Of a stretch of DNA of 36,546 nucleotides, positions 1-36,546 are shown one piece after another. The notes under the pieces were generated by a model. That model worked only from the letters and a program-made list of their open reading frames with translations. It was not told the origin of the DNA and made no database searches. This DNA is from Stramenopiles sp. TOSAG23-6 (lineage: Eukaryota). Position numbers and translations under genes: made by a program. Within the stretch, counting starts at the first letter, position 1, and each line of letters opens with the position of its first letter. Where the stretch lies: the NCBI GenBank assembly GCA_900128565.1, contig LT635941.1, positions 1 to 36,546 of the forward strand, in the 5' to 3' direction.

Positions 1-3000
1 TTTCTTGGGTTTTGTCGGAGCATTCACCAGTACCATAACAACCTTCAACGGCAACACATACAGCAACAGCTGCAATATTTTGATGTATTTTTATATTTGC
101 CTTGACACTTGTAATAACGCAGTAATGGTGAAATGGTGAATCGCAAGGATAAATTTCACCTTCCTCGCAGTAAAACCCAACAGGACATTCAATTCGTTCA
201 CTACTTCCTTCAGGACATATGTAATTTTTACCAGTTACAACATCTGTGCCCGAACAATTTTTGCGTCCCTTTCGTCGTTCGCAATAATACCCCTCCGGGC
301 ATATCTCAGTAGTCTTTGCCTTGGGACAGAAAAATCCGGCTGGACAATGTTCTGGAACTAGTGAGCCTTCTACACAAAAGTGCTTGTATTCTTTATTTTC
401 TAATCTTACGTCGCCAATATTTAAAGACCAGTCACAAGATTTCGATTCTGCAGGGGTGTAGCAATAATTCCCAACAGGACATATGCTAGACTTTCTTGAT
501 CCTTCAGGACACCATTGGCATGTCTTCGGAGATGAGTCTGCACAAAATCTATCGATATCACATCGTACTTTCAGATCCGAAGTTTCACAATAAAATCCAG
601 CTTCGCATACTTCGGGGACAGCATTTCCTCCCATACACGAAAGAGACTTTTCTTCTGCGCCCCACGTAGCAGCAACATTCCACTTACATGGCTGAACGCA
701 TTGGGCTTCATTGGTAATCGAATTACAAGCATCACTTCCTAGGCATTGACTATGACATTTAGCGACAGTATCCCGTTCATCTGTTACATCATTCCCATCC
801 TGTGTCAAACACCTTCCTCTCTGGGAAGTAGGATGCAACGTCTCTATCCAAGCACCAGACCAAGTACATGTCTCTTCTCTTTCAGCATAACCCATTCGCT
901 TGTGAGTACACTGTGACAGCTTCTCTACTTCGTGTATATGATATTTACCTTCAATATTTTCGACGCATAAGGTATCGTGATCCGTCCATGTTCCAACCTC
1001 GCCTGTAGTATCATCAGATACCGTACACGATGTCCTTGTTTTATCAGGCAACAATCTACTACGAGCAGAAAACCACGTACAAACATCGCCAGTGCAATCA
1101 CTTTCGGACTTATCAATACAATCATCGGGACCATAGCAACCTTCTGATGCTACACAAACGGGTCCATGCCAAGTACCAACTTGGCCAGTAGTACTATTTT
1201 CAGTTTCACACGAAGATAAATTATTAAGGTCCAACACAACAGAAGCATCATTTACCCAATTACATTCCGACCATAAGCATTTATTTGACACACAAGTACT
1301 AGACGAAGCAATACCAGTACAACATGCATCTGATTTGACCCAAACATTAATGTCACTATGTTTTAAACTACTAGCTGACCATAATTTGCATTCACTGATT
1401 AAAATATTGAGACCCCGATTCTGTATTTGAGTAGTGTCACTTTTACCAAAAAGGGAAACCCCAAGATATGTGCCGTTCACACTAAATTTAATATAAAACA
1501 GCTCACTTGATTGAGGAATCGATAATGATTTACCCTGTATCGCACCTTCGGTTAGCCCTGCGACATAAATATTCCCAGCCGAATCTTCCGTTGCGGTGTA
1601 GGCATTAACGTTAGCATTGTCGTCAGATACAATCTCTTTGATGAACTTTTGTTTACCCGTCGAACTATCACAGCTAATCAATAGTAAATCAGTATTTCCT
1701 TTATCATTTACTCGAGAACCTACAATTATAACATCATTTGATACCGAAGAAACATATAATGCTGCCGCCGTCGTAGCAGTCCCTGGTTTACCAAATAATG
1801 TTGTGTTTAGTATTGTCCCAGTCCCACTCATTTTTATTAAAAATGCATCTTGTGTACCGGTAATGTTGACTTCATTAAGTGTGCCGTCAGGCGTTTTTAA
1901 TGTGTTTCCAACCACCCAAATATTTCCTTTACTATCTGCAAAAAGTGCAGTTACTGTGCCATTCGTAATGTTTAAGTCCTTCTCAAATATTTCCACTAAA
2001 CTCGTACCAGTTTGAAATGAAATCAGATAACTCGTAGACTTTTTATAGACACTATTTTTGTAGTCAGCCTCTTCAAACGTATTTACTAGAACATACACCT
2101 TGCCATCAGTAGCAATGATATCGACGGGTTCGACAAGCCACACAGGTTTGTCAAATTCAAAGCATTTTTTAGTGGGTTTATCGATATTTAAATGGACAAT
2201 ACACCCGTTCGCACCGGGTTCATCTATTTTTCCTTCCTTTAACAATGCAAATATTTTCCCGGATATTGGTTGCAAAGCAAGGCCAAATGGAGTATAATAT
2301 ACGCCAGTTTCCCCAATCAATGTTTCAGACTGTAACTCGCCGTCTAAATTAAATTTCACTACTAGTAAATCAGCCTTACCAGTTAAAGCAATGTCATTGA
2401 TTGTTGACTCGGAATTGCCCAAAACCCAAACATGAGATGAATCGGTTACAATTCCGTAGCTACTAGTAGACTTTGGTAAATCTTGAGGTGTATATTTCTT
2501 CTCGATGAAAGATTTCGATGGATCTTTTGGACCACACGAAATGTTACATGTTTCCTCCCCTGATTTCCAAGCACAATCTTTTGTTTCTTCATTGTCATCT
2601 GCATCAAAATTTTCACACTCTNTTTGGCGTGTTTTCCCAATACAAGCATCTTTAAATCCACCATTACCATCAGATTCACAGCCAATAGTAGTACCAGTTG
2701 CACATGTAATTCCTGATGTTCGGACGCATCTTGGCACAGATAAATTACAATTACCTGTGCCAAAGCAACCTTCTTTGCTTACACATACATCCAAATCAGA
2801 AATATTTTTGCCGCCTATTACACATGCGTGATGATATGGTGGATCACAAGGGTATACATCTTTTCCATTTTGACAGTAGAATCCTACTGGGCATTCTTTT
2901 GGTGATCCTGTACCCTCGGGGCAGTACCACCCAACATCAGATGTTTCTTCGGTTGGAGGTACATATGTAGCACAGCTTCCAGGAACGGTCCCTTTGGGAC

Positions 3001-6000
3001 AGTACATACCTTCTGGGCATGGGTCTATTCGTATGCCGTTGCTACACATCTTCCCAAGAGGACAATCATCAGGTGATGAACTACCTTCAAGACATATATA
3101 TGATTTATCACCTCCTGCTCCTTGCATACATGGAATTTTGGTAGAAGGATCCGGACAGAAATAACCAAGAGGACAAAGAGTTCTAAACTTGGTCCCGGTA
3201 GGACAATACGAAGCTTTGCCGTCAATGTCGAGACATTTAATTTGAGTTTTTGATGTGTTACATTCGGATCCCTCTTCGCAATCTTGAGGACTAGACATAC
3301 CTGCTTCAGAATTACAGTAGTACCCATAATCGTCCGATTCACACGAATGAACATGTAAACCTTTTGTACAATAAGATCCTGCTGGACATGCTATAGGCGC
3401 ATTATTTTTTCCTGGACAATACCAAACATAATCCCTGCCTCTGAGAACAGTAACTGTAGGGACTCTGCTAGGGTCCCAAACACACGATATCGCTTCATCA
3501 GAGGACTCACAGAAGTGTCCAGCAGGGCATTCTTGCGGGTTCTTTGATCCTCTGGGACAATACGATCCGTCATTTTTACAGTATACTTCTTCTGTGCTAT
3601 TTGGTGAATAATTAGACATTGACGAAACACTAGGAGTGCCCGAGCCTTCGGGACAGTACAAAGTAAGTTCCTCTTGAGACCATATACCCATAATTGGGTT
3701 CCATTGGCATCCTTCCTCTGACTTTGACTCACAATTTGTTTGATCATATTGATGGCATCCATCTTTTCCTGTACAGTGATTTTCGCAATCTAATGGATTC
3801 TTTCTTTCTGCAGTTACATCAAGGTTGCCGAATTTTGTGATACATTTACCTCTAGGCCTATTTGGATGAGTATGAGATTTCCACGAACCATCCCAATGAC
3901 ACGTTTCTCCTGTATTTGCAAGCCCAACATACAAACTATTTCCGTCGCAGGATGTTGAATCTACTACTGGAATTACTTTGGAGTGTGATGCTGTTGTTGA
4001 GACACATTTATTTTGGGAATCATTACAACCCTCCGTGTAACTTACATCTGTACAACATACTCTATGTGAAAACCTAACAAGTCTCGCATTAGTTGAATCA
4101 CTATAAATATTTGCCCAATAAATACGACATCGTGTGTAGACAATTCCCAATCCCATATTTGCTCGACCAGCTTCGTTAAGTAGCGGATAATTAGTCGATA
4201 TTGGTCTCAAATACGGATTCTCGCCATTGTTATCAAATTCAGCTAATTGCATACTCACGCTATCATCAGTCTTGGTCTGTACTGCTACGTAAATGTTATT
4301 AAATTCGTCGGCAACCATATCTAATGTTTTTATGAGCATTAAACTGCCTAAATTCAAAGTAAAATTACAATCTTTTGTTTCTGCATTACCATCTGCATCA
4401 ACATCTTCACATTCACTTTGTGTAAATTTCCCAACACAAGCATCTCTAAATCCACCAGAATTATCAGATTCACACCCTGTAGTAGTATCATTTGTACATG
4501 TTACAGTCGAAGCTTGAAAACACTCAACTTCCTTGTGAATTACTTCTTCAGTCATATTTCCACTATCGTCAAATTGTAAGAGTAATGCTCTCCGAGTAGT
4601 AGAGCCAGTGATTATGTTTTCCTTAAAGCCTGCAACCCAAATTCGTTCAATGGAATCAACAATTATAGAAGTTCCAACAGTTAAAGATAAAGGAATGGCA
4701 ACAATTTCAGTGAAAACGATATCTCCATTGCTCTGAATTTTTCTGAGAAAAAGACTTTGTTGGCCAGTTTTTGGGTCAATTGTGTGACCTGTGAGGTATA
4801 AATCCCCAGACGAGTCAATAGCAAAATCCTTGACACTTCCAAAACCACTAAAGATTTTTCTTTTTGTAGGGTTTGTATCTGTATCAGAAGGTTGGAATTC
4901 AACAAGCCAAGATTCCTGGTGATTCCAAAGACCGTACTTTTCAACAGTGATAAGTGTATAATATTTAGTTTTGCTAAAATTGGACAAAACTCCAATCGGA
5001 ATAGTTTTATAGCCCTTGCCAAAATTATCGAAATTTAAAGTTTTTGTACCTGTATGTGCACCATCCGAAGAGAATTGCAATAAAGATATCGGATGTTCAT
5101 CATAGTCAATATTTCCTTCTACGACAGCAACTATTACACCCCCGTCACCAGTAATGGCAAAACCACCAACATTGTAGGACTTTCCAGAGATACCCCACTG
5201 ATATGTAACAGTTTCGCTTTCACTGGCAATCTTTTGAAGCAAAATATCACGAATCCCTGTGAATCCATCATTTTCCCATGTACAATCCGATGTTTCTGTA
5301 TTATTATCTGCATCAAAATCTACACATTCACTTTGCGTTAATTTCCCGATACAAGCATCTCTAAACCCACCACTACCATCAGACTCGCATCCTGCAGTAC
5401 TGCCATCTGTGCATGTTACGGATGATGTTTGAGAACAGATAATTCCCTTTTCTGCGATGACCCAAACGACTCCATCTTTGTTTACATTTACCATAGCACC
5501 GGTAATATTCGTTGAACCTTCACCAAATACATGTCTATCCGTATCTTCTTCGGAAGTTCTATCTGTAAGGCTGCAGGATTGTATCGTGCTTGTTTCAGCA
5601 CAAATAGTTGATCCTTCCAATGAAATCCCTTTCAAAACACCAATTTTGTTGTTATTATTCTCATCATGAGTAGCGCATAGCGTTTCATCGCTATGACCTG
5701 TAATTTCGGTAACAGTTTCAACCCATTCACATCCTGTATCTCTACATTTATCGGCGGTATCTTGCAATTTACATGTATCATAACTTACAGTGATTATATA
5801 ATCACATTTCGCGTTTTGAAAACACGTTGTGGCATCTAAATTAGGACATTCAGAATAAGAACTAACACACTTTTTGTCATCTGTTAGCCATGTACACTCT
5901 GAATTTGATGTACACCCAGATATGTCTAGCCCACTACAATCAGATACTGCGCTTAGTTTACACTGACCTGTTGTATAACAGCCCCTTTTAATGATACACA

Positions 6001-9000
6001 TTTCGTTTTCTTCCCATGTTCCTACCAAGCCTGTTTCAGCTGTTGGTGTTATACAAGAAATTTCAGACGTTCTCGTATTTAATATTTTATTGCTACTGAT
6101 CCAGAGACACCCATCACCACACTCATTGCACCCACTTTGACACGAACTCTTAGTTTTAAGCGCATTACACGCGGCATTATTATAACATCCTTCAACAGCA
6201 CGACACACAGGGCCATACCAATTGATATTTATATCAGGAGAGCCGGTGGGGTAATCGAAACAATTTTTCACATCCTGTGCTGAAACAGAATAAGGTTTGG
6301 TTACACCATTATCAAGTATACAAGATGACCCTTGCCATGTACTTGTCCATATTCCTACTTTGCCATTGGTAGAATCATGTTTTATACATGATTCTTCAGT
6401 TAAACGAGACGTTAAAATATATGAGTTTCCAACTATCCATTCACAATTGCTAGTGTCATTGCATACCGAATCTACATCTGTATTACATCTACCTGTCCCA
6501 TAACAACCTTCTCTAGCAATACAAACATGGCCGTGCCAACTACCATATTCAAAAGTTGTTTCATCAGGTTCGCGGCAAGACTTGAAGTTTGTACGATCCG
6601 CCAGAAGCTTTTCGCCTTTATTAATCCAATTACAATTGGTAGAATCATCACACTCTTGCTTTGAACTATTATCAGTACAATCTTTACTTCCAAAGCAACC
6701 ATCCACACTAACACATGAAGCAACTTGAGCAATGTTTTTATTGTTTACAAGACATGCATGATGATACGGGGCATCACAAGGATACTTTGAATGGCCAAAT
6801 TCACAGTAGAATCCAGGAGGGCATTTACCTCTTTTGGCGCTTCCAGCTGGACAATAATCACCATTTCTATCGCATTGATGATTTTCAGTTTCACCAATGT
6901 CATCACAAAAATATCCCACAGGACAAGTGTGACACTGTGGAAGTTGATAATCAGATGTATTGTAACTCCCGGGAGAACAACTTTCACAAGAACCACCATC
7001 TTTTAAATATTTACCTGGGCCACACAAATTAGCTACTACAGGTTCACTCCAAGCTCCCCAGTCAATTTCAAAATCACCATTGCTTGCTCTAACCCTTACC
7101 CTGTATTCTTCACTGTCGTCAACAGGATAAAGCCGAAAGAATCTGTCACCAGAACTACATCCAGAGATGTCCATGATTTTATCATCACTACCTTTGTTGC
7201 CATCGTCGTTCTCCCCCGGAGCGTATACTCTAAATGCTTTTGTAACAAAGTCAATATTAGTGTTAACATCGAAGCCAATTTTTGATATCTTTCGTCCACC
7301 ATTTGCGGGACACGTAAACATTATAATAAGGGCTTCGCTTGAAGCACCTGTGGGTAAACGTACATCCCAACACTTCACATCACCCCCACAAGGAAATAAT
7401 CGGAAGTTTTTACCTACGCGTTTCATAGAAGTTGCAAAAGCTCCATCAGCAGAATTTGGTCCCTGAAACATTTGAACAATTTCTGGTGGACTAATATTCT
7501 GTATCTTTAAAGAGCTATACATGTCTGCAGATTTTCCAACGGAATTTGATGCTTGTACACGTAACATGAGATCCATATTTGGCTCATCGACAGACATATT
7601 ACTCAGCACGGCAAGCTTAAGTGACCCTGGGGTACCATATAAAACCCAACCGGGTGCATTCCAGTCACAGTTCCCACCACAGTCTGTCTTTCCCTTCTGA
7701 AGACATGTCTCATAAGAAGTTTTGACACAAAATGACTCTGTTTTATGTGGATCACGTACCCAGCTACAATCTTCATCGCCGTTACAAGAACTTTCGACAG
7801 TAATTTTGTCGCAATCGGTTACTATCGGCCTACAATATGCTTTGTTGCCCCACCCACAGTCCTCGTTTGCATCACAAGTATCTTTATCATGCTCAAAACA
7901 TTTTAGGTCATTTGATATGGCATGACATGCTTCGTATATAAATTGAAATTGGTATCTCATTTTCTCAGAATCGATGTCAATACCTTCAATAACTGGAACT
8001 CTTGCCACAATTGTACCATTCATAGATACAACTTGAATTGGTTTTGCATCGATACCATCTAACCAATATGGCTTTGTAATCTTTAGACACTGGCCTGGTA
8101 AAGATACTCTATATGTTGTATATATATCATGGTCAGTTAATGATGCCCATTCTTCTGTAGTTGCGTCCACAAATACATTCCTTGGTTTTTCAGCATATAA
8201 CTCTTCTAAACTCGAAATTGCAAACCCAATACCCGATTGAAATGTAATCTCCCCTTCCCACGAGCATTTTTCTGCCTTACTTCGCTCCGAGTTATCTAAA
8301 CAAACTGATGATGTATCGTGTTGTTCACAACCGCTACTTCCCGTTTCTATGTTTTTACAACTTATTTGTGTTGCTTCCTGAATTTTTCCAATTTCGTCAC
8401 CATTCGAATTATACACAGAATCATTTTGCTGAAAAGGTTGTGATATATCACCAGAAATTTTGATGACTGTATCATCAATTTCATATGCTTCAAGAACGCG
8501 CAAACGCTCACTGACTTTTCCAAAGTATACATTGTTTGGTGTAAATAAACTCATACCTGGAATAAACTTTTTCCATACAGGATCCATCCACGTACCATCT
8601 GAGTCTTTACACTGACTTTCCCAGCTGGAAGACGTGCCTTCACTTTCCACTGTATCGGACACATCGTGGGTCCCGTACATGCAGGAAGGAAACTTCAATA
8701 TGTTTTTTCCATTCTGGATGATTTTATTGAAGGTATTTCCTGGTAGTTTATATATTAATCGTTTATACAGTTCAATTAAATTTGGAAGTTCTTCCAAGGT
8801 TCCAGGAGCAAGAAAAGTAAGATTTGCTTCCCACGAACAAGCATCATTTCTTCGACAATCAATGAATGTTTTGTGCTTTGCACATTGGGGGGGGGTCTCT
8901 TTATCCTTACAAGCTAATTCTTCTACGCCAGTCAGTTTTCCTATTAAAGTTCCATCAGCTTTGTATACAGTGTCGCCTGGTTTAAATGAGTGGGGAATTG

Positions 9001-9123
9001 CACCACCAGATACCCTGATTATTGCTGTTTCCTTATTGTATGTGTTAATAACATGTAATGTAGAGTCACCGCCACATACATCGCATTCACTTTGTGTATT
9101 TGCAACACCGCCAGGAACAATGC
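1..9123 (-). CDS. Gene B exon 2, 3'-partial (~3,040 codons): PRC-like motifs, FN3-like domains, Cys super-repeats, two SBBP-like propellers, CPxGxYC repeats
   Basis: Absent from the ORF track, consistent with a frame that has no stop before the window edge. Manual translation near 9120, 7051, 4318, 2428 and 4 gives the same frame as exon 1. The peptides match gene A (CIVPGGVANTQSECDVCGGDSTLHVI vs CTVPGKVAKKQIECDVCGGDTTLYVI; NIAAVAVCVAVEGCYGTGECSDKTQE identical). Confidence 0.88.
1340..2490 (-). other. SBBP-like beta-propeller 2 (gene B), counterpart of the gene A propeller
   Basis: GIVTDSSHVWVLGNSESTINDIALTGKADLLVVKFNLDG...; DSAGNIYVAGLTEGAIQG. Confidence 0.62.
4050..5270 (-). other. SBBP-like beta-propeller 1 (gene B only)
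   Basis: Cys-poor island with FAIDSSGDLYLTG, IIVDSIERIWVAG and MVADEFNNIYVA blades. Confidence 0.55.
7040..8070 (-). other. Two fibronectin type III-like domains (gene B)
   Basis: Manual translation gives LRVQASNSVGKSA and CPANGGRKISKIGFDV...RVRASNGDFEIDWGAWSEP, collinear with gene A. Confidence 0.62.
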
Positions 9124-9213
9124 ATGTATTTTGGAAAAATATTTAACAAAAAATAGTTAGGTACAACATTTCGTACGAAAAAAAATCAAATTTGAAAAAA
9201 AAATAAAACATAC
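9124..9213 (-). other. Putative 90-nt intron with non-canonical 3' end (GT...AT)
   Basis: Minus strand: GAAAAAT|GTATGTTTT...GTACCTAACT...CCAAAATACAT|GCATTGTT. It is T-rich and contains the in-frame TAA at 9143-9145. Removal restores EKCIVPG, collinear with uninterrupted DKCTVPG in gene A. Confidence 0.72.
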
Positions 9214-17260: not shown

Positions 17261-17652
17261 TTCTCTACTATTATGGTTATATTACCGGTAGTTTAACTAA
17301 ATTTTGTGAAAAAACGGTTTCTACAAAGGCGGTGTGTCTCGTTCCAAAATATCAAGATGTGGACAATCTTTAGGTATAAAATTTCGTACCATTTTTGAGT
17401 TTGTAACGGTCAGTTTTTTTGGTTTCAAAAATTTTGATAAAAAATCTCCGATACGTACTATCATCCGAAGATCTGTCTCATCTATCTACAGATCTGATTA
17501 CGATTACAATTGCGACGGTGGATAGCTAATATTAGATAGTTGCCGCTACTGCAGTAGCAGTAGAATGTAAATGTATTGAATTAGCGTCAGCATGGATTAT
17601 TATATGTCAGACAATAATAAGTGTAATACAATGAGAGATGTAAATTATTTGT

Positions 17653-17822
17653 ATTGTGGGAACTGAAAAATGCTTCTATATCACGAATAATCTTCTATAT
17701 CATGATTGTAGGAACTTAAAAATACTTCTATATCATGAATATTCCTTGTGTCTGCCTACTTTATTTGAGAGATGTGCTTTTAGAATACAAATAATCGTTG
17801 ACTACTTACTTTATTTGAGAGA
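17653..17822. repeat. Short degenerate intergenic direct repeats (~50-52 bp period)
   Basis: ATTGT.GGAACT.AAAAAT.CTTCTATATCA.GAATA at 17653 and 17705, CTTCTATATCA three times, TACTTTATTTGAGAGA at ~17757 and ~17807. Confidence 0.8.
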
Positions 17823-17840
17823 GACGTAGAGAGAGACAAA

Positions 17841-18004: not shown

Positions 18005-18109
18005 CTGGCGATAACTATGTGTATTCATAGAGTCAAACTCTAGAAGAGTTGCGTAGAACATAACTCTCCATTCGTCTGTAAAAGTCATTTACAACATTCT
18101 TTTCTTAAA

Positions 18110-18204
18110 TAAGTATTTTATACTATTACGCTATTTTATTATTTTACGCTCAAATTATAAGAAATTATTTTATACTATTTTATTATTTTACCCTGAAATT
18201 ATAA
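18110..18204 (-). terminator. AT-rich 3' UTR of gene A with AATAAA-type signals in a 44-bp-period duplication
   Basis: CTATTTTATTATTTTAC.CT.AAATTATAA at 18131-18160 and 18175-18204; each copy contains AATAAA on the minus strand. Confidence 0.4.
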
Positions 18205-27200: not shown

Positions 27201-30200
27201 AATCTGAACTTATGTTATACTGTTGTAGCCTCACTTCCCCATTTGAACTAAACTTAGTAATTGTTGCCACAGAAATATCTGATACAGTTTTAGTTCCCCC
27301 GACCCATATGTGATCAGAAGAATCAAACGCGATACTTTCTCCAGAAGATTTTGTATCGTCGGAATTTTCCCGATGAAAGAAAACAGATTCCCGATTTCCA
27401 GTTTTAGGATTAATTTGCATTAGCATGATTTCTAAATCGTTAGTTGTTGTTTTTTGAAAACTTGTATCTGCGGTGGTAGGGTCAATAAATCCAGTACCCC
27501 AAAGATTGCCAGACGAGTCTAGGCCAATATCGCGCAGAGAAGCTGAATGAGGCTCCCAATTACCTAATTCTGACGGTGCGAATAATTGAATTCCAGCCGG
27601 ATTATATTTTACAATCCAGTACTCAGTTCCAAAAAGGACTAGTGCATATATATTTCCAGTATCCTCTACTGTCATTGCTACTGGGACTAACTCTCTTAAA
27701 GAATCTTTTTGTGAAGTTATAGATATTTGAAATGAAGAATCTACCTCATCATCTGTGTCGTATATATGTATAAATGTACCAGCATATGTGTTGGACTGAA
27801 ATTTTTGATAAATTAATACGACATCATTGGTATTTGGAGTATTTTTAATAACACTTGCTTCATACCTATAGCCATCTTCACCGATCAATTTGTTTTTTTG
27901 TACGTCATCACTAGAACTGTATTGAATTATAACAATGTCTTGTACACCTGTTATAGCTTTACCATTAATATTTCCCGTTGTGTGCCCCAGTACCCAAGTG
28001 TAAAGTTCATTGGAAGTTATACCAATTCCCTCTGTAATCGCAGTCGTCGCACTATTTTCGTACTGGATAAACTTAACATCATTACTTTTCGGTTTTTCAG
28101 CTGGTAAACACTCGGAAAAGCAACTCCCCTTACTATTGTATTTATCACATTTGCCTTCTCCAAAACAACCTTCCGAGATGACACAAGAGTCTCTTCCAGA
28201 TATATTTTCTTCGTTTATTGTGCAACTGTGATGATACGGTGGATCACAAGGATATTTTTTTTTCCCGCCTCGTATACAATAAAAACTCTTGGGACATTTG
28301 GTAGGAACTTTTGTGCCACTTGGACAATACCAACTAGGATTACCAGGTTCATTGTGTGTAGTATATGTATGATCACAGGGTTTAGGTATTTTGCCAAATT
28401 CACAATAATATCCTTCCNCACAATCTTTTTCGGTTTCTCCATTAGTACATTCTTTTCCGGCCGGGCATTCAACGCGATTAGTTGAACCTGGATAACATAT
28501 GAATGAAGTTCCTTCAGGTGCTCCAAGCATGCATTTTGTTTTTGTTTTAGGAGTTTCACAATAGTAACCTTTGGGACAAATGAGTTTTTCTTTTGTGCCT
28601 TCTGGGCAGTATGATGCCTTTCCATTATATAGTCCACACGGTGTTTGCTCAGAAGCTGATGTCTCACATTCAAACCCGGCTTTACATTTAAGAGGATTTG
28701 GGATTCCACCTTCAACTGTTATAGGGCAATGCCAAGCAAATGTCTCCCCTTCTTCATCGCATGATGTTTTAGTTTCCCCTTCTTCGCAATAATATCCCTT
28801 TCCACAAGGATCTGGGAATTTTGAACCAGCTGGGCAAAAATATGAATGTTCTTTAGATTTAAGATATTCTCTTTGAAATTCCATATTACTGTGACCTGAA
28901 TCCCAGACACAGGATTCCGCAGTAGTAGATAACATACAATAATTACCAGACGGACACGGCAAGGGATTTCTCGTACCTCTTGGACAGTAGATACCATTGT
29001 CATCACATCTTTGTTTATTCATACTATTCGCGCAATAATGACCAACCATACAAATAAGAGGTTCCGATATTCGCTCTGGACAGTATAACGCAAGTTCTTC
29101 TTCAATCCACATTGCAAGGTTTTCGTACCATTCGCAATTTGCCTCACTCATGCAAGTAGTCTTTGAAATTATAGGATTACATAAAGCATTGTTTTTACCA
29201 ACACATTGATAATCACAATAAAGATAATTCCGTCTTGTGTGTGTAACGTCTTCTCCACTAAATATTTCAACACATCTACCCCTAGGCCTTTCATCGTGCA
29301 ATGTTTGTGTCCATGCGGGGCTCTTCTCTAGGATATACGTGTTGTCGCGTTTGGTATACTTTTCGTAGTTATCTGGCCATAAACAAGAAGTTTCAGTATT
29401 CGCAAATCCAAGATGTTGCTCGGAATTGCCTGTATTACAATCTGATGTAGGTATAATCCTTATATCGTCCTCATGATTCTTATTGAATATGTTATGTACT
29501 TCAAGATATGACACACAAATTTTATTTCCATCCCAAGATATTTGTTTCCATGTACCTTGTTTTTGATCCGTACCTTTTGTATCAGCACAGTCAGCTTTTG
29601 TCCGATCGGATAGGATTTCCGAAGAATCCTGAATCCATGTACAACCGTTTGGATTTGATCCACATGGACCCTCCATAATTTCACTTGTACATGAACCATT
29701 TCCGTAACATCCACCAATAATGAGACACATCTCACCATGTTGCCATGTACCTACTTTACCCGTCGTTTCGTCTGGCACAGAACAACTCAATTCATCGCGT
29801 GAATGTAACAGCATCGAGTTTTCATCAGTCCAAGTACAGCCTACTTTACCTTCACAAGATGCTTCGCTATCTTCTGTCGTGCATCTACTTGTACATTCTG
29901 GTGTAGCTTCGCATGTTTCTGTACCTGCATTCCACTCACAAAGATCATTATCTTTACAACTTGTTTCATCGCTATTTGCACAATTTTGCGGGCACATTCT
30001 TTTACCAAAACATCCTTGAAGACTGACACAAACAGGCCCGTGCCATTTCCCATTCTGCGCAACACATGACTCGATATTTCCAGCCGTTACATGCTCAAGA
30101 TTTCCACTTCCATTTATCAAGCAAGCATCACCTTTCCAAGTTCCACCCCATATACCAACTTTGCCAGTATCTTGATCAACTGTTGTGCATGATGTTTCAT

Positions 30201-33200
30201 TTGCACGAGAATGTAATACAAACGTGTTACCCGTGGACCATTCACAATTATCAGTGCATTGACTCTTTAATTTACCTTGGCACACAGCATCACTATTTTT
30301 TTTATAGCACCCTTCCGCGAGGACGCAAATAGGGCCGTGCCAGGTTCCGTGTTCATGAGTTATTTCAGAAGCTGTCTGACATGATTTGAAGTCAACACGA
30401 TCCGATAAAAGTTTTTCACCTGCATTGACCCACAAACAGTTTTCAGTATCACTACAGCTTGATTGATCAGTATTACTCGAACAGTTAATTACCGGTATGC
30501 ATACTTCTGTATCTGAATTCCATGTACAAAGATCAGTTTCATCACAGCTTGATTGATCTTCTTTATTTATACATGTTTGTGAATAGCACCCATCTACAAT
30601 AACACATGACGCAGCTGCGGCGATGTTTTTATTGTCTACCATACATGTATGATGGTATGGGGGATCACAAGGATACTTGTCTTTGCCAGCCTCGCAGTAA
30701 AATCCATCAGGACACCAACTGTCTTTATCGCTAGTATTCGCCGGGCAATAATCTCCTATGCCATCACAAGGTGCATATTGAATTTGACCTGTGCTTGCAC
30801 AAAAATTCCCTTCCGGGCAAATGTGGCATTCTGGGAGTTGATAATCAACTTCGTTATACCTGCCTGGAGAACACAACATACACCCGTCGTTACTAAAGTA
30901 TTCTCCTGGCCCACAAAATTCAAAAACCTTGGTGGGACTCCATGCACTCCAATCAAGTGAAGTGTCCCCATTAGCTGCTCTCACTTTGACGTTATATCTG
31001 TTTGGTTCACGAAGTCGATATAGCCTCACAAATTTATCACCTTCTTTACAATCAAATACTGAAACCAATTGTGTCGATAATGATAAGTCATCACCTTCAC
31101 CTTCTACTTTATACGCTTCTCTTACTTCGTCTACTGTAGCGCTAACATCAAAGCCAAACTTTGATATTTGACGACCACCATTAAATGCAGGACATTCAAA
31201 CATTATAACAAGAAATTCTTTCGGAGTATCCGCAGGTAATGCAACATTCCAACAAGGATAGCTCGAGCCCTCATCACAATCAAACATTCTAAAATAAATA
31301 CCATTTTTTTGTAAAATACTTACAAACACATCTTCTTTATCTCCTTCATCTGTGCGTTTTCGAAAATAGTTCACAGGATCTGGAGGCTTTATGTCTTTTA
31401 TGAGTAAGCTTTGTGTAGGACTAGATTTACCCATAGAATTAATGGCAACCACTTGGACCAAGATATTATGTTTGAATAACATATCAGTTAACACGATAAG
31501 TTTATATTCTGCTGGGCGTGGACACTCTTTATTATATTCTCCTTCTTTCAGGTCAGCACAATGTTTCTCAAATACTTGCCAATCACAATGACTACCATAC
31601 TCTTCGCACTTTTCTTTTGAATCGTTTTTTTCGTCTTTTACGTCGTTATGCGCACAACCATGACCTTGGCATTCAGAATAATCATAAACTATCTTATATT
31701 TCATAAGAGGTGTTCCGGAATCTGTACCACCGACATCTGGAGCCTTTATTACAATAGTCCCAAAGGAGGAAAGAATTTGTGTTGGGATGGCGTTTTCTCC
31801 ATCTATCCAAAATGGCGCGCTTATTTTTTGACAAAACCCGGTTAGTGATACTTGGAAAGTCATGTATAATTCATCCCCAGAGTTCAGTTGAAGGTCTGCG
31901 GGTACGTCGAGCAATAATGTAATTTCATTATAGTTTATTTTCACTATTTGGCCAACGAGATACTTATCTGCCGTGTATATTTTCATTGCAATATTATAAG
32001 CATTGGTAGCATCCTCTCCTGAAACTGTAAGTACTTTCTTATTGTGTGAATCGTATTTTACACCCGTTTGATATATACTCAAACTGTATAATTCGTCAAA
32101 TTCTTCAAGATCTACCTTGATACCATCGTGAAATGTTATGTCCGCTTCCCATGAACACTCTGCACGTATACATGCATACGCTGTAATATGTTGTGCACAG
32201 TCACTACTATTTTTACAAGATAAGTTCTCCACTTCTGATAATCTCCCAATTTCATTTCCCTTTGAATCATACACCATTTCATTTACCTGTAACTTCATAG
32301 AGGAACCAGAAACTGTAAAATTTGTTTTACCTTTAGAAGTGTCATCAATAACATATAACGTTGTATCCCCTCCACAAACATCACATTCAATTTGTTTTTT
32401 AGCAACTTTTCCAGGTACAGTACATTTATCGGGTATAACCGAAGCCGCCAGAGAAGAAGAACCAATTACAAATGGAACTGGTAAATATGAATGATCGCCT
32501 CTCCATGAGCAATTGTTCTTACTATCTTCACACGACTCCTGTTCCATATGCCGATTACATTCTCTTATTTGCGGAGGTTCTTTTCCTTTTTTGATATACA
32601 TAGAGTATATTTGGTGCAGAGTGTGATCTTTAGGGTTATCACATTTATCCTCGTAGAGATAACAACAAAAAGGAGAATGATTTTTATATGCAATCGCATT
32701 ACAATTGGGAAGTTTAAGGCAATCATTTTTACATGATTCAAGATTAGATGGTTCGTGGTCATCGAGACACTTTCCCCAACCATAACCACTTAAAAATGCA
32801 TATCCTCCCTTATTTTCGCCAAGTTCAGACAGATCATCACCATCATCAAAGTCAGATTCAGGTCCAATGCACAGTTCTTTATTTCCATCTTTTACAATAG
32901 TCCCAGGTCTAAAATCATCCATATAAGAAGGCCCTATACACCCATTTGTGTTACTATAACATATATTATAACTTGTTGAATCGACCATTGCATCTTCCCA
33001 AGAACAAGAATGATTTTTACAGTCATCCTTTATTTCATGTTTTGAACAGTCAATAGGATCCCCAGAACAAACTTCCTGGGACCATGAACAAGAATGTTTT
33101 TGACATGTTGTTTCTGNTACATGTTTTGCACAGGCTATATAACGTCCTTTACAAGATGCAGAGAATGTGACATCTACTGTACCGTAAGACATTACGGACG

Positions 33201-36200
33201 AATTTTCTTCAACCTTGGTCTTTGTTACGTTTATTGGTTTTGGACCAGCAGCTGCATTTGAGAAACTTTCGCATTCATCCTCAGTGACTACAATTCGAGG
33301 CGTCTGGAGCCAAGTACGATCTTCATCACGTTTAAAACTTTCTATCTCAAAACCAAGTGTTGTTGTACTATCATTTCGAAGTAATCCTGTGAAAGATAAA
33401 AGTTTTGGTGTTTGAATACATGCTATTGCGCCTTCTCCCCAAATGTATTGTCCGTTGGTACACATCTTACATGATGAGTTTACATTATCCCCTGGCGTGG
33501 TGCTCGTTCCGGGAGCGATAATGCCTTTGATTTCGGAATATCTACCATTAGGGCATAATAAACAATCGGAAGAACTAGCATGATTCTCGGCAGTGTCTTC
33601 GTCAGAAATATATTTACCCTTATCACATAGTTTGCAATCAGTGGAACCTACAATTTCTTGATATTTACCAGGATCACAAACTTCACAATTTAAGATTCTC
33701 CTATTCTCAGCTACTGGGTGTACCGATGGATTATATTTACCAGCATCACACCCTATACACATACCCTCCCACTGACAAACTTCTGTCTCCTCCCCATCCA
33801 CTGTCTCTGTGTGACATGTGTATACTCTATCTGGAGCACTATGAGCTTTATGACTGTACCTGCCTGAAGGACATACTATACAATCATCAATGCCATTTGA
33901 TTTATTACTTATTTCAACATCCGTGGGGGAACCATCTTCACAATCTTTATCCTTTTTTTCATTATTATCCAACTCGCAACGAGAACCAATAGGCGTTTCA
34001 GGTAAATATGTACCTGCAGGACACCCAATGCAATCATCTGAAGATTTTTGTCCATCAATATCTTTCCAATAACCAGGGGGGCAAATTTTACAATCACTGT
34101 AATGATCATGAAATGTTTCGAGACTTCCATCTGCCGAACCACCTGGGTCATCATTGTATCTACCAGTAGCGCAAGTCTGACAACTACTTTCACTAACCTT
34201 GGGTTGATCATTTGTTGAATCCCAATACTTACCGGGCCCACAAACAATACAATTCGATCTATCGGTATGCTTTTCAGCATTCGTTTTATCGGGGTTAAAC
34301 GATCCATCTGGACATTCTAAACATTTATCTACAGATATACCCGCTGACGACCCTGGATTATATGTTCCTGCTGGACATACTGTACATGAATTTATAGATG
34401 TCTGACCTTCTTGATCTTGAAAAGTTCCCCTTGGACAATATTCACAGGCACTTTCTGAATCATGGTACAAGTGATAGCTACCTTCGGGCTTGCCCGTAAA
34501 GAAGGCGTTATGTCGTACTAGAGGGATCCCGTCGTTTGTCATCATAACACGGATATTGTCCTCCGTATCGTTCTGCATTTTTAAGTATTTCTGGTACTGC
34601 GACGTGTCGCCAGTTTGTTCACCGTCCTTAAAGAAGGCGTCTTGCTGTGATGTGGGAATTCCGTCGTCGGTCATCTCGTCGCGGATATCGTTCTCTGACG
34701 TATTCTGTATATCGACGTACTTCTGGTACTGTGGCAGTGAATTCATCGGTGGCCCAGCGTCGTCTGTAGCAATTCGCCCACCCATTTTATCATTATATCT
34801 TGCCCGAGGACAATTTATACATAAACTCCCACCTCTTATATTTTGATATTTTCCAGGATCACATACAACGCAATCCGAGACCTCATCATGTGCGTCAGCA
34901 GTATTTATATTGGCTAGACTCTTCCCTGCGTCGCATTTTATACAAGATGTATGCACAAATTGGCCAACCAATATATTGTACTTCCCAGCAGGACATATTA
35001 TACAATCATCGATATTATCGTGCTTGGATGCGGAGTCACCTGATGGTCTGTATGTACCTGCCGGACACTGAATACACTCTGTAGATTCTAAAGTATCAGT
35101 ATATTTACCAGCTTCACAAAGCTTACATTGTATATCTAATGGGTCATTAGAAAATGTACCAATTGGACAGGGAGTACAGGATGTCGCACCTAGACGTTCA
35201 TCTACCACGGATCCTTCAGAACACTGATTGCAAGCCACAGGGGGTGTTTTTGAATTTTGGGCTTCGGTAGTATATTTTGATAACGAACATAATGTACAAT
35301 TTTCGGATCCAGCATACTCCGAATATTTACCTTGATCGCAGGTAATGCATTCTTTTCCAAAAGGAGAAAATTTCCCAGCCACACATTCGTCGCATTTAGT
35401 GAAATTTTCAGTCGTATACGAACCAGCAGGGCAAATTTTGCATTCTGTTTGTGACGTATCTTCAGTATACTTCCCTTCCGCACAAGGAATACATTCTCTT
35501 GAGTTATTCCCCCCCTCGTTGTACTTGCCAGCTTCGCAAGGTAGACATAGTCCTCTTGTATACTTGTAGTTTTCTCCCTCTGAATTGGTGAGAGGCCAAA
35601 ATTTTTCACCTTCTTTACATTTTCCACATATTGCATCTGTACTAGTAGTACCCGGTATAATCACACAATCCTCCCCAATGTGTTCACTATGCGCAATACA
35701 AGATTCCGAGCCAAGATATTTAGTAAACTTTCCATCCGGGCAGTCTGAACAAGTACCATCAACATAACCCCTGCTAGAATCTCTAAAACTAATAACAACT
35801 TTTCCGTGGCCATCATGATTGCTTGGATGTACGGTGTGTTTTATGTATTCGATTTTTCCAAGATCACCATCTTCACCATTATCTTCGAGATTTGTGGCAA
35901 TGAAACTTGCCCCCCCCTTTACCTCCTCTATTATCAGTGATGTGCACACTTCCTGAACTATTTTCACCGGAGTATCCAAAGTCTCCACCAATCCAACCAC
36001 CTCCACCACCACCAGCATTTCTACCGCCATTACCACCACCACCAAATCCACCCAATGAAAAGGTGACATTTCCACCGATAGCACCATCTTTGAATGATTT
36101 ACCACCTCCAGCTGGAAAATTTGATTGTTCAGATATATCCACATTGTACACCAAATTATTTGAAAGCGATTCACAAGTCCCACCAACACACTCAGAATAC

Positions 36201-36544
36201 TTTGATTCCCATTTACATGAAGAAATTTCGACGCAAGTTTCAATTGTTTTTCCCGAAGCACATTTTGGAGAGTTATCATCGCTAGTGCATGCAATGTTTT
36301 CATCAAATGAAATTTCAACGCCCAATACACAGTTTTGAAGAAGGCATGCTCCATCATTTGAACATTTGGCGGCATTATCTGCATATTGAGGATCTTCCAC
36401 AGATACAGTAGTATAGCATCTAATCTCGCTACCAATACTTTCAACAATACCTAAAAATAAACCTGTTGATGTATAAAGTTTGTTGCCTGTTTCCCACTCT
36501 GCTGGGGGTCCTGAATTGTAAGGCCTTTTTATAATTATACTCGA
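18199..36544 (-). CDS. Gene A: giant Cys-rich multi-domain surface receptor-like membrane protein, 5'-partial (~6,100 aa in window), one +1 frameshift at 35910-35917
   Basis: The 6082-aa ORF 18199-36447 is protein-like from ~35910 down to the TAA at 18199-18201. Upstream of the C8 run the real frame is that of ORF 35879-36400, which stays open to the window end (SSIIIKRPYNSGPPAEWETGNKLYTSTGLFLGIVESI...) and aligns with gene B residues ~1480-1690. No introns are needed. Confidence 0.9.
18202..18400 (-). other. Cytoplasmic coiled-coil and Ser/acidic tail (gene A)
   Basis: LQQKLHEHEENLKRLKRHEEERKLIEEKRK followed by SDSSDSGSSSSGSSSSSDG. Confidence 0.6.
18480..19940 (-). other. C-terminal multi-pass membrane domain (~7-8 hydrophobic helices) of the type found at the end of giant protist Cys-rich proteins (often annotated TRP-C-terminal-like)
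   Basis: Hydrophobic segments with family motifs IKIxxSFxQV, LYPxLSxKCFRVFNC, YLxADLxVxC, YVIGIP, YGSLFxxYR...WWYEFIEMxRK, KPY. Preceded by CRKGHEGIMCAICKKGY. Confidence 0.8.
20970..25610 (-). repeat. CPxGxYC / YCPxGS Cys-rich repeat region (gene A; also at 28250-29090 and 30680-30910, and in gene B at ~150-640, ~2860-3700 and ~6790-7030)
   Basis: Many alternating CP.G.YC and [FY]CP.G[ST] units. Confidence 0.8.
26850..28080 (-). other. SBBP-like beta-propeller (gene A)
   Basis: Cys-poor island with blades such as WVLGHTTGNINGKAITGVQDIVIIQY, IGLDSSGNLWGTG, IAFDSSDHIWVGG, IYLAGTTEGNLKG...LFVSKFD. Confidence 0.65.
30915..31790 (-). other. Two fibronectin type III-like domains (gene A)
   Basis: SGTPLMKYKIVY...VQVVAINSMGKSSP and PAFNGGRQISKFGF...YNVKVRAANG...WSAWS. 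Confidence 0.65.
32620..32810 (-). other. PAN/Apple-like module (gene A)
   Basis: GWGKCLD...NLESCKNDCLKLPNCNAIAY...CCYLY fits the CxxxCxxxxxCxAxxY...CxL pattern. Confidence 0.55.
33415..35760 (-). repeat. GCC2/GCC3 (ephrin-receptor-like/TNFR-like) CxxCxxGxY repeats, gene A
   Basis: Same unit pattern, collinear with gene B 9765-12025. Confidence 0.85.
34498..34732 (-). repeat. Two in-frame 132-bp (44-aa) GC-richer tandem units inside gene A
   Basis: QYQKYVDIQNTSENDIRDEMTDDGIPTSQQDAFF / QYQKYLKMQNDTEDNIRVMMTNDGIPLVRHNAFF; GAAGGCGT recurs at 34501 and 34633. Confidence 0.85.
35790..36130 (-). other. C-terminal part of the ALK/LTK-like Gly-rich domain in gene A (spans the frameshift)
   Basis: GGFGGGGNGGRNAGGGGGGWIGGDFGYSGENS...GGKGG/ASFIATN...HDGHGKVVI; very similar to 12060-12390 at both DNA and protein level. 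Confidence 0.85.
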
Positions 36545-36546
36545 AG

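Follow-up and report, generated by a model that had tools for sequence, protein, structure and literature searches.

The window, by which we mean the whole stretch of 36,546 nucleotides analysed here, is largely taken up by four stop-to-stop frames on the minus strand, according to the reading of its open reading frames. These frames make up two genes. Gene A (2-17260) encodes the N-terminal ~5,750 codons of a protein of ~8,000 aa in one frame broken by a single TAA, which divides it into a 5' part of 2712 aa (9143-17281) and a 3' part of 3047 aa (2-9142) that runs off the window. Gene B (18199-36544) contributes the C-terminal ~6,100 codons in a main frame of 6083 aa (18199-36450), together with 221 upstream codons in another frame (35879-36544), which also runs off the window. 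The N-terminus of B lies beyond the window end, and the membrane core of A is outside the window as well. Both genes, and all features described for them below, are on the minus strand. They are separated by an AT-rich intergenic spacer of ~940 nt (17261-18198) containing an 85-nt tandem duplication (17840-18004), one copy of which is missing from a metagenome contig.

Comparison by blastp showed that the two proteins are collinear, with an overall identity of 30-40% (A1701-2576 with B178-1076, 33%; A2933-3807 with B1366-2281, 34%; A4432-5445 with B2325-3333, 29%; A5340-5760 with B3381-3817, 40%). By this collinearity the final in-window residue of A maps to window position ~24999, and positions 1-81 are 98.8% identical in DNA to 24999-25079. 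All remaining DNA matches between the genes are 67-82% identical, the best conserved being 12029-12413 with 35758-36152 (82%), so the genes are paralogs that have diverged rather than a product of assembly duplication. Extrapolated to full length, B would have ~7,599 aa and A ~8,019 aa; leaving out the 90-nt insertion described below brings A to ~7,990 aa. A sequence-only reading of this DNA had proposed two collinear minus-strand paralogs ~25 kb apart, with position 1 corresponding to 24999, one copy providing the N-terminus and the other the C-terminus of a protein of ~7,500-8,000 aa, and had considered that the copies could be artefacts of one locus. The frames, the alignments and the 81-nt match bear out the proposal, A holding the signal peptide end and B the C-terminal end, and the DNA identities speak against the artefact. 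A and B are two real tandem genes, anciently duplicated, of an uncultured marine protist.

Each gene shows one interruption of its frame. The TAA of A (9143-9145) lies in an AT-rich, in-frame insertion of 90 nt (9122-9211, boundaries ambiguous by ~5 nt), which forms an exact 30-aa gap against B. The core of the insertion (9144-9197) reached a word depth of 4143 in one metagenome, against ~10 elsewhere, and its 21-nt motif recurs in the intergenic spacer at 17370-17390. No canonical GT-AG pair fits the insertion and no splicing was seen in the RNA contigs; it is probably a non-canonical intron or a short repeat element. The frame change of B falls in a G8 homopolymer (35910-35917) with one base too many relative to A. 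Runs of this kind are typical sites of sequencing error. The length of the frames agrees with the earlier description of the genes as nearly intronless, subject to the TAA-bearing insertion of A, which is absent from B, and to the 1-nt frameshift of B.

The N-terminal modules were read from gene A. Its ATG (17258-17260) opens a predicted signal peptide (17201-17260; MYYMKILSIVLLRILLVVNA), for which the hydrophobic residues 7-29 are the candidate segment. Approximately 5-6 plant-type leucine-rich repeats follow (16427-16954; Pfam LRR_8, E 5.8e-5, 23.2 bits, below the cut-off of 27), in which the LxxLxLxxNxLxGxIP pattern can be seen by eye, and then an EGF-like/Cys-rich region (15212-16384) with EGF matches of 32.4 and 29.4 bits (cut-off 21.5) and weak EGF_CA and hEGF matches. 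The N-terminal, TNF-like half of an ALK/LTK-type glycine-rich domain (GRD) is found at 14582-15214 (ALK_LTK_GRD, 43.5 bits, E 4.8e-11, cut-off 24.5), and its top PDB sequence match is ALK (7mzy_A, E 0.018). The Gly-rich C-terminal half (12032-13084, Gly 18.5%), which we take by eye to resemble the C-terminal half of ALK, lies ~470 aa away, with Cys-rich modules (13082-14494) in between.

Behind these modules both proteins carry Ephrin-receptor-like/TNFR-like Cys repeats, located at 9722-12034 in A (Ephrin_rec_like 135 and 85 bits, TNFR_c6 36.3, NCD3G 61) and at 33331-35919 in B (Ephrin_rec_like 55-112 bits in three pieces), with 27 and 26 CxxCxxGx[YFW] motifs respectively. SBBP-type beta-propellers were identified with a profile of three copies, which matches the CylK propeller (7fh6_A, E 3.5e-15): two in A, at 4082-5275 (with a Cys-rich insert and a weak Pfam SBBP match) and at 1352-2494 (Reg_prop 25.1 bits, cut-off 20.4; SBBP 17.6 bits), and one in B at 26851-28068. 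The Pfam SBBP family was also matched above threshold, at 24.7 bits. The region 21901-26853 of B consists of arrays of two Cys-rich module types, a 62-aa Cys/Trp module with the pattern C..C.W..LL..C..G.W..C..EGCYG..C and ~35-aa CPxGxYC units; 11 copies were aligned and B contains 33 CxxGx[YF]C motifs. These modules matched no Pfam family and had no sequence relative in PDB, and by their sequence the two types appear to be new. Among the modules named in the sequence-only reading, the EGF, ALK-like GRD, Eph/TNFR-like and propeller types have Pfam or PDB matches above threshold; LRR, PAN (PAN_1, E 0.018) and FN3 (fn3, E 0.035) have Pfam matches that are all sub-threshold, and ShK (E 7.7 in Pfam) has no support.

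An EGF-like, DUF7630-like module lies directly before the membrane in B (19981-20070; Pfam E 8.1e-5, 23.1 bits, below the cut-off of 27). The C-terminus then presents a hydrophobic helix (B 5503-5528), a basic coil, six strongly hydrophobic helices and the stop, as expected from the multi-pass C-terminal anchor proposed earlier. The first transmembrane helix (B 5503-5525, 19876-19944) has a hydropathy of 2.65-2.69 and corresponds to helix 57-86 in model m4d00d6ced9dc. The PF06011-like core (B ~5650-5990, 18481-19503) includes eight helices, of which six are strongly and two weakly hydrophobic, and a hairpin with the conserved pattern YLxADxxxxC and a Cys pair, and is followed by a tail, predicted to be cytosolic, of a basic coiled coil and an acidic/Ser-rich end (18199-18480, stop at 18199-18201). 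The positive-inside pattern and the hairpin Cys pair favour an N-out/C-in topology. Only seven helices are strongly hydrophobic, and a nine-helix model would depend on the two weak helices and on charge rules.

The core belongs to a large family. A search of 50%-identity cluster representatives gave 3,258 relatives with E<=0.001, of which 465 reach <=1e-10 and 8 reach <=1e-30. PF06011 (fungal Pkd2/Flc 'TRP') was matched by 20 of the 35 homologs scanned, with 10 exceeding the 28.5-bit cut-off; in the family alignment of 40 sequences, 32 matched it. This alignment includes the window's own core copy, which gave no Pfam match to PF06011 even at E<=10, so the link to this family is transitive. One L of the alignment is invariant and 12 further positions are nearly so, and the hairpin Cys pair is conserved in at least 90%. 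Upstream of the core, Ephrin_rec_like occurs in 15 of the 35 homologs and DUF7630 in 4, and the ectodomains differ widely, with LRR, TIG, fn3, Kelch and PMP repeats among them; in scanned homologs the core is also joined to domains of the cNMP-binding, EF-hand, C2 and PDZ types. Typical relatives in the hit list have 400-3,350 aa, and the core search found none of 3,345-10,646 aa. The search of EukProt suggested in the sequence-only reading returned a collinear homolog of 3,885 aa (P0181, E 7.6e-108). Core models are confident (pLDDT 89.6 and 80.9). They resemble no solved structure (Foldseek best E 0.39; VIA best Z 9.5 over 90 residues), solved TRP, polycystin and GPCR chains included, so a pore is not arguable from structure. 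In BFVD the best-scoring match comes from a megavirus protein that bears the name TRP ion channel (TM 0.53 over 303 columns, E 6.5e-4).

The same sequence is present in independent DNA and RNA data, at >=99% identity in a metagenome. In metagenome X3 all 30 bins of window 1-20000 are covered at 95-100% identity, and the RNA libraries X6, X7 and X13 cover 26, 28 and 23 of these 30 bins, the RNA support consisting of contigs only. An RNA contig of the polyA library agrees with 1-358 at every position and continues for 445 nt past the window start, and the 81/82 junction is included in metagenome and RNA contigs. Depth in the polyA library peaks at 28.8 in 18199-18480, the 3' end of B. Since one contig of that library falls within the spacer (17797-17937), a long UTR or carry-over of DNA is possible. 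On the earlier question of whether either copy is transcribed across its length, the RNA contigs in 23-28 of the 30 bins of 1-20000 speak in favour, with possible carry-over as a reservation; A and B are probably expressed. Strain variants were found at 80 places, and the 40 listed comprise 22 synonymous and 18 non-synonymous changes, a synonymous share well above the 21% expected (binomial p 3e-6; pN/pS ~0.22). Among these listed variants the ratio is 6:0 in the membrane core of B and 10:5 downstream of the TAA (1001-6770). They indicate purifying selection, and the earlier suggestion of a diversifying system was not borne out.

The CRMPs of apicomplexans and ciliates (TgCRMPA/B, PfCRMP1-4, Tetrahymena CRMP1/2) likewise have EGF-like and ephrin-receptor-like modules in a large ectodomain rich in Cys, and their reports describe nine TM helices with N-out/C-in orientation (PMC9670195, PMC9815656). 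In both groups an EGF-like module stands just before a multi-pass core that is predicted to be N-out, with a cytosolic tail, and the genes form paralog pairs. The likeness is drawn from the published plan. The window proteins exceed the CRMPs in size two- to threefold, have in addition LRR, ALK-type GRD and SBBP propellers, and are without Kringle or MAR domain. The two reports describe CRMPs as needed for rhoptry or mucocyst discharge, CRMPA/B as predicted to pair via their membrane cores, and a contact-sensor role as proposed (PMC9670195, PMC9815656); what they propose is GPCR-like sensing and not a channel. In contrast to the CRMP bearers, the organism behind the window is a marine protist that lives free and is not known to have a rhoptry-like organelle.

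Fungal PF06011 proteins (S. pombe Pkd2, S. cerevisiae/Cryptococcus Flc, A. nidulans TrpR) have a core of the same superfamily, by the transitive link, and a predicted N-out/C-in topology. They measure ~700-900 aa. The window core differs from theirs by an extra N-terminal helix and a 150-aa basic coil ahead of it. Pkd2 is Ca2+-permeable under membrane stretch, and in the literature considered it is the only member of the superfamily with channel activity. One account assigns PF06011 to the three TRP-like genes of S. pombe, pkd2 included, and to fungal TrpR homologs, and describes a small ML-like lipid-binding N-domain (PMC8618638), whereas the window ectodomain has >5,000 aa of adhesion-type modules. 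The same module order and core recur in uncharacterised protist and giant-virus entries of the type 'Ephrin_rec_like + DUF7630 + TRP C-terminal domain', and Atlas clusters carry the Ephrin_rec_like, DUF7630 and TRP families. Polycystin-1 (PKD1), which has LRR at its ectodomain tip, and adhesion GPCRs also have a long modular ectodomain joined to a multi-pass core that is believed to turn contact or force into a signal; no GAIN/GPS, REJ, PLAT, PKD or 7TM family match was obtained in any Pfam scan of the window. The GRD is shared with the ALK/LTK ectodomain and with phage fibre tips (Pam3 gp24, S16 gp38), and TNF-like domains together with glycine-rich ones are described as the receptor-binding parts of ALK and of such tips (PMC9608196). 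In contrast to ALK/LTK, no kinase is present and the GRD of A is interrupted.

The explanation we prefer, with a probability of about 0.4, is a giant surface contact or force sensor with a PF06011-type core. The proteins would be type-I-like, with a signal peptide followed by ~5,500-7,400 extracellular residues. The LRR, EGF and ALK-type TNF-like/glycine-rich domains would form a ligand-binding tip on a disulfide-rich stalk of Ephrin-receptor-like repeats, the two Cys-rich module types and SBBP propellers, which the EGF-like module would join to the core and its charged cytosolic tail. Prey or particles binding to or pulling at the distal ectodomain could be relayed to the core, which may open or modulate a cation (Ca2+) pathway or signal to the cytosol otherwise. 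The outcome might be local exocytosis or engulfment, by analogy with the contact-triggered organelle discharge that requires alveolate CRMPs. The parts of this scheme that we infer are the location at the surface, the topology, the binding of a ligand, the flux of ions and the response of the cell.

A passive giant adhesin or surface-coat/stalk protein, in which the core would serve only as an anchor or in trafficking, is possible though rather doubtful. The ectodomain would then stick to prey, particles or mates, or make up a glycocalyx. Repetitive stalk rich in disulfides makes up most of the protein, family ectodomains vary strongly among the 35 homologs, and Pfam recognised no catalytic or known signalling domain in the tail. 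However, the core is the best conserved part, with 3,258 relatives, its invariant and nearly invariant positions and 6:0 variants, which is more than an anchor requires, and the fusions to cNMP-binding, EF-hand, C2 and PDZ domains indicate signalling. An intracellular, Flc-like role in ER/Golgi calcium or flavin homeostasis, with the giant part lumenal in the secretory pathway, seems improbable. It would accord with the Golgi location given for TrpR (PMC8618638) and the link of Flc proteins to FAD transport and calcium described in PMC9600462, but an ectodomain built of LRR, EGF, GRD, Ephrin-like and propeller modules over 5,500+ aa is what cell-surface proteins typically have, the ML-like domain is absent from the Pfam matches of the window, and CRMPs of like plan are described as reaching the plasma membrane (PMC9670195).

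We give little credence to the idea that the genes are pseudogenes in decay, or that the assembly made two copies of a single locus. The TAA, the frameshift, six single N and the 81-nt near-identical tract could be read in that way, but frames of 17 kb and 18 kb have one defect each, the TAA sits in a frame-keeping insertion and the frameshift in a homopolymer; the 10:5 variants past the TAA, the 67-82% DNA identity outside the 81-nt tract and the recovery of the same sequence, junction included, in independent contigs also stand against it. The least likely origin, to be held as very improbable, is a giant virus (Nucleocytoviricota) in place of a cell: the nearest viral structure match is the megavirus PF06011-type protein, and one Ephrin_rec_like/TRP Atlas cluster is commonest in Nucleocytoviricota (phylum known for 4 members), but pattern and tblastn searches of 2.9 million viral contigs gave no relative, the closest giant homolog is the EukProt eukaryote CDS, and the locus shows LRRs of plant type, an insertion resembling an intron and a long spacer that is AT-rich and carries repeats.

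The sensor reading stays close to what had been suggested from the sequence. A recognition or mechanical-sensing role is still the most reasonable reading of the proteins, as a suggestion about function, and the 'membrane signalling-like domain' is now placed, through transitive matches, in the PF06011 superfamily, where it may signal. The statement that the architecture fits no described family is not supported, given the 3,258 core clusters, PF06011 in 20 of 35 homologs and the CRMP plan, in which a Cys-rich, EGF-like and ephrin-receptor-like ectodomain precedes a core of roughly nine helices and a cytosolic tail. By analogy, the architecture may represent a giant version of a protist plan like that of the apicomplexan and ciliate CRMP contact sensors and, judged by their sequences, A and B are very large new members of a widespread, almost unstudied class of protist receptors.

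Genes A and B, two neighbouring minus-strand paralogs, are in our view expressed and intact, or nearly so, and encode giant surface proteins of the class that combines Ephrin-like repeats with a PF06011-like core (probability about 0.85). A stop-to-stop ORF scan indicated that two minus-strand reading frames fill the window almost wholly. Gene A (2..17260) comprises an ORF at 2..9142 (3047 aa, open at the window start) and one at 9143..17281 (2712 aa) in the same frame, with a single TAA between them, while gene B comprises an ORF at 18199..36450 (6083 aa, whose residue numbers are used here) and one at 35879..36544 (221 aa, open at the window end). The ATG of gene A lies at 17258-17260 on the minus strand, its protein begins MYYMKILSIVLLRILLVVNA, and it is preceded by a 940-nt AT-rich spacer rich in short direct repeats; the stop of gene B is at 18199-18201, also on the minus strand. 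The spacer holds an 85-nt tandem duplication at 17840-18004, and one metagenome contig is without one of the two copies (an 87-nt skip), therefore the copy number differs between strains. The GC content of the window is 36-42%, with a negative GC skew throughout, a single N occurs at six scattered places, and scans of the window for Rfam families and tRNA gave no matches.

The two genes are collinear and their proteins align in four long blocks with 29-40% identity. The final residue of A inside the window pairs with residue 3817 of B, at window position ~24999, which is where the sequence-only reading had placed the correspondence. Positions 1-81 and 24999-25079 are 98.8% identical in DNA, and all remaining DNA matches between A and B lie at 67-82%. 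Gene conversion is the probable origin of the near-identical tract, and the tract may be why the contig stops here. A contig from a polyA library spans 1-358 with no differences and continues 445 nt past the window start; this shows that the 81/82 junction is genuine and that gene A extends beyond the window. An odd joint in the contig placement (81 to 6492) was explained by contigs of gene B placed on the first 81 nt of A. Because the DNA outside the 81-nt tract is only 67-82% identical, A and B are old paralogs rather than a duplication made in assembly, which speaks against the notion that the copies are assembly artefacts of one locus. Extrapolation gives lengths of about 7,600 aa for B and about 8,000 aa for A, in agreement with the full length of ~7,500-8,000 aa proposed earlier.

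Each gene carries one interruption. The TAA of gene A (9143-9145) sits within a 90-nt AT-rich segment, 9122-9211, that is an exact 30-codon insertion in A relative to B. The core of this insertion, 9144-9197, reaches a word depth of 4143 in one metagenome vs about 10 in the flanks, and of 967 in an RNA library, that is, an excess of about 400-fold in seawater metagenome and of about 100-fold or more in RNA for this short AT-rich element. A 21-nt motif of the insertion, CGTACGAAATnTTnTACCTAA, recurs on the minus strand at 17370-17390, about 110 nt upstream of the ATG of gene A; no match in the window would be expected by chance and two are present. Since the depth is in excess and the motif recurs, the insertion resembles a short element of high copy number, which may be intron-forming. 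Imperfect inverted repeats seem to form its ends, and the element may be MITE- or introner-like. Canonical GT-AG introns around the TAA were rejected: six candidates keep the frame, but each has its end at 9090 and would take out residues that are conserved between A and B. Reading the insertion boundaries as AT..AC is possible, though they are unlike a U12 intron. Among the contigs listed, none from RNA joins across 9122-9211 by a short joint, and the pile-up there is the high-copy element; bins free of RNA and the missing bridging contig over 9122-9211 carry no evidential weight. The variants 3' of the TAA (1001-6770) comprise 10 synonymous and 5 non-synonymous changes, which argues that this part of A is still translated. 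In gene B, the sequence upstream of ~35917 continues in another frame for 221 codons that are 53% identical to residues 1507-1706 of A (E 4e-42). The frame changes within a run of eight G at 35910-35917, where one G less would restore the sequence of paralog A.

A search of sequencing runs revealed DNA matches in seawater metagenomes and RNA matches in seawater metatranscriptomes. In one metagenome (X3), contigs at 95-100% identity were found in 30/30 bins of window 1-20000, and three RNA libraries covered 26/30 (X6), 28/30 (X7) and 23/30 (X13) of the same bins; X6 and X7 represent one sample, and X13 is a polyA library from another study. This RNA coverage is that of assembled contigs, for which DNA carry-over is possible, and one contig of a polyA library falls within the spacer. 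Depth in X13 peaks at the 3' end of B (28.8 vs 0-9 elsewhere). From the 40 variant places listed, out of 80, we counted 22 synonymous and 18 non-synonymous changes, where 21% synonymous would be expected (binomial p 3e-6), and the pN/pS calculated from these 40 of 80 places is about 0.22. By region, the synonymous to non-synonymous counts among the variants listed were 16:18 in gene A and 6:0 in the membrane core of B. This is a pattern of purifying selection, not of decay or obvious diversification, and does not bear out the suggestion that the genes form a diversifying system.

Analysis of the ectodomains with Pfam, whose gathering scores are 24.5 bits for ALK_LTK_GRD, 20.5 for SBBP, 21.4 for PAN_1 and 25 for fn3, identified Ephrin_rec_like (up to 135 bits, with about 26-27 half-repeat motifs per gene) and, also above threshold, EGF (32.4 bits), TNFR_c6, NCD3G and ELAPOR-type TNFR. 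Two modules named in the sequence-only reading were recovered above their cut-offs, namely the ALK/LTK-like glycine-rich domain or GRD (PF12810, 43.5 bits, profile positions 8-126 of 243 in A) and the SBBP-like module (PF06739, 24.7 bits, in the C-terminal half of A); Reg_prop scored 25.1 bits. For the plant-type LRR, the LRR_8 match stays under the Pfam threshold at 23.2 bits. PAN_1 (15.3 bits, E 0.018) and fn3 (14.8 bits, E 0.035) also scored below cut-off, although their sequence patterns keep both plausible, whereas ShK, with a Pfam E of 7.7, found no support. The beta-propellers are three Cys-free segments of 250-400 aa, and their joint three-copy profile matches the CylK propeller (E 3.5e-15). 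No Pfam family covers roughly 3,000-4,000 aa of each gene. These stretches consist mainly of units of ~35 aa with the motif CPxGxYC (33 motifs in B) and of a 62-aa Cys/Trp module, C..C.W..LL..C..G.W..C..EGCYG..C, without Pfam relative, that is present in at least 11 aligned copies within 21901-30903 and 2-7000 (e.g. 26626-26820); a profile of 11 copies had no match in the PDB at E≤10.

In A, some 470 aa of nested Cys-rich modules (13082-14494) seem to divide the GRD, with the TNF-like half on one side and the polyglycine half on the other. For the N-terminal half, the best match among PDB sequences is ALK (7mzy_A), with an E of only 0.018 and an alignment that spans the characteristic motifs. 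The glycine-rich C-terminal half, which follows about 470 aa further on, presumably resembles the corresponding half of ALK. When this half alone was searched with phmmer, chimeras with Gly-Ser linkers were the only matches, and a sequence search of the PDB with the entire GRD region gave nothing at E≤0.01. The TNF-like/glycine-rich unit is described as the part that binds ligand or receptor, both in ALK and at the tips of phage fibres (PMC9608196).

At the C-terminus of B, an EGF-like match to DUF7630 (23.1 bits, cut-off 27) lies 13 residues before the first transmembrane helix (residues 5503-5525), which is followed by a basic coil of 150 aa, a six-helix hydrophobic block and a charged tail. 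A full HMMER (phmmer) scan of 1.84 billion representatives, with residues 5690-6010 of B as the core query, retrieved 3,258 relatives at E≤0.001, 465 at ≤1e-10 and 8 at ≤1e-30. We picked 35 longer homologs from the best 150 of the 3,258 for a Pfam scan: 20 carry PF06011 'TRP' at E≤0.001, with 10 of the 35 exceeding the cut-off of 28.5 bits, 15 carry Ephrin_rec_like and 4 DUF7630; cNMP-binding, EF-hand, C2, PDZ, LRR, TIG, fn3, Kelch and PMP repeat domains also occur among them. In the core family alignment, PF06011 matches 32 of 40 sequences at E≤0.01. Through these matching homologs the core can be assigned transitively to the PF06011 (Pkd2/Flc/TrpR) superfamily, the window's own core having no match to PF06011 even at E≤10 (18202-20100, 18421-19383). 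Atlas clusters point to the PF06011 link as well; with the PF06011 and DUF7630 clusters set aside, the best Atlas score was 0.76 and nothing was usable. In five proteins of other protists (P0013, P0023, P0029, P0132 and P0005) the cytosolic end of the core is fused to cyclic-nucleotide-binding, EF-hand/C2 or PDZ domains, and these fusions hint that the core may be regulated by, or feed into, second messengers. No giant relatives of the core were found among proteins of 3,345-10,646 aa. Among proteins of 833-2,375 aa the core profile had 11 matches; the full names listed are a Thecamonas uncharacterised/DUF7630 protein, a Volvox hypothetical protein and an Anaeramoeba 'dynein assembly factor', with no CRMP (cysteine repeat modular protein) among them. 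Pattern matches in viral contigs (11) and in metagenome contigs (59) were in no case confirmed.

AlphaFold gave confident models, with a pLDDT of 89.6 for the core and of 80.9 for residues 5440-6083. Comparisons with the PDB gave a best E of 0.45 for the core profile against its sequences and of 0.39 for the model with Foldseek (14-3-3 proteins), while VIA-align against 48,161 chains reached at best a Z of 9.5 (90 residues), a level that helical bundles give as noise. In none of these comparisons did a solved structure prove similar to the core. The top match in BFVD was a 'Transient receptor potential ion channel' of a Megaviridae sample (E 6.5e-4, probability 1.00, TM 0.53, 303 columns). Two environmental megavirus proteins in BFVD, A0A5J6VHI1 and A0A5J6VI06, appear to have the fold in common with the core, which would mean that marine giant viruses carry a PF06011-like module. 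The best conserved element of the core is a YLxADxxxxC hairpin, whose Cys pair is kept in at least 90% of sequences. The C-terminus of B has seven strong hydrophobic helices and two that are weak but conserved, positive charges follow alternate helices, and the tail is basic. Provided that the two weak helices cross the membrane, we infer nine helices with the N-terminus outside and the C-terminus inside, a topology that fits because of the alternating positive charges, the Cys pair and the basic tail.

Among the closest known architectures is that of the CRMPs. In Toxoplasma, Plasmodium and Tetrahymena these are described (PMC9670195, PMC9815656) as having an outside N-terminus, an ectodomain that is rich in Cys and contains modules of EGF-like and ephrin-receptor-like type, and a conserved core in which EGF-like domains are joined to transmembrane helices, nine in Apicomplexa and five predicted in Tetrahymena; CRMPs are essential for contact-triggered rhoptry or mucocyst discharge, and a pairing of CRMPA with CRMPB via their cores is predicted. 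A and B likewise have Cys-rich ectodomains with EGF and Ephrin_rec_like modules, and the seven strong and two weak helices of B may correspond to the nine of apicomplexan CRMPs, whose C-terminus, according to the same texts, is cytosolic. Before the membrane, CRMPs are described with two EGF-like domains, whereas B has the one sub-threshold DUF7630 match. In architecture, the window proteins appear to follow the CRMP plan. PF06011 itself is described as defining the fungal TRP-like proteins, homologs of TrpR, with S. pombe pkd2, trp1322 and trp663 discussed alongside and Flc proteins given as Pkd2 homologs (PMC8618638). For reconstituted Pkd2, Ca2+ is reported to pass on membrane stretch; its N-domain is extracellular and its tail cytosolic (PMC9727806). 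Fungal PF06011 proteins are also described with an N-terminal ML-like lipid-binding domain (PMC8618638), in contrast to A and B, where no such Pfam family is found. The GAIN/GPS, REJ/PLAT and 7TM or 11TM families of Polycystin-1 and adhesion GPCRs are absent from all Pfam scans of A and B, no GPCR or TRP chain rose above noise in fold searches with the core model, and ALK/LTK receptor tyrosine kinases have a cytoplasmic kinase, whereas Pfam scans of the C-terminus of B gave no kinase family.

The closest giant relative is a EukProt CDS of 3,885 aa (P0181, E 7.6e-108), apparently from a marine stramenopile to judge by its source name. Collinearity with A and B extends through the GRD, Ephrin repeats, FN3-like region and CPxGxYC arrays, and the CDS ends without the membrane core. 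In the available texts of the literature searched, we found no description of this architecture and no link between CRMPs and PF06011. The architecture had not been recognised as that of a described family; by their PF06011-like core and Ephrin-like repeats, they are a new and exceptionally large addition to a known, poorly studied class, not a new kind of system.

By analogy with this family, we tentatively propose, at somewhat less than even odds, that A and B convert contact or force into a signal. The distal LRR/GRD tip would bind something, the long disulfide-rich stalk would pass on binding or force, and the core would turn this input into a cation flux or another cytosolic signal that sets off a local response. 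The main rival, in which the proteins are passive adhesins with an elaborate anchor, seems to us rather unlikely. A general contact/force-to-signal role is supported because relatives of the core occur in free-living protists in thousands, some of them ending ~8,000-residue ectodomains with recognisable ligand-binding tips. A far-reaching version of the contact-to-signal proposal, which we think improbable, is that the PF06011-like core is an ancestral eukaryotic 'contact-to-calcium' transducer common to fungal Pkd2, alveolate CRMPs and the giants described here. In a tiny marine flagellate, the tandem paralogs would then pair by their cores, as predicted for CRMPA and CRMPB, into a sub-micrometre tether-gated sensor, by which the touch of prey would lead to local Ca2+ entry and to engulfment or exocytosis. 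If true, this would provide a free-living model for the triggering of rhoptry discharge in parasites.

The membrane core of CRMPs and Pkd2/Flc is without a solved structure or an agreed mechanism, yet Toxoplasma and Plasmodium require it to invade their hosts and fission yeast requires it for cytokinesis. The free-living protist relatives are natural variants for structural and functional study. Genes of this kind are routinely split or truncated in annotation, as in the closest database homolog, which stops at 3,885 aa. Ecologically, proteins of this kind are candidate prey-recognition molecules of uncultured marine bacterivores.
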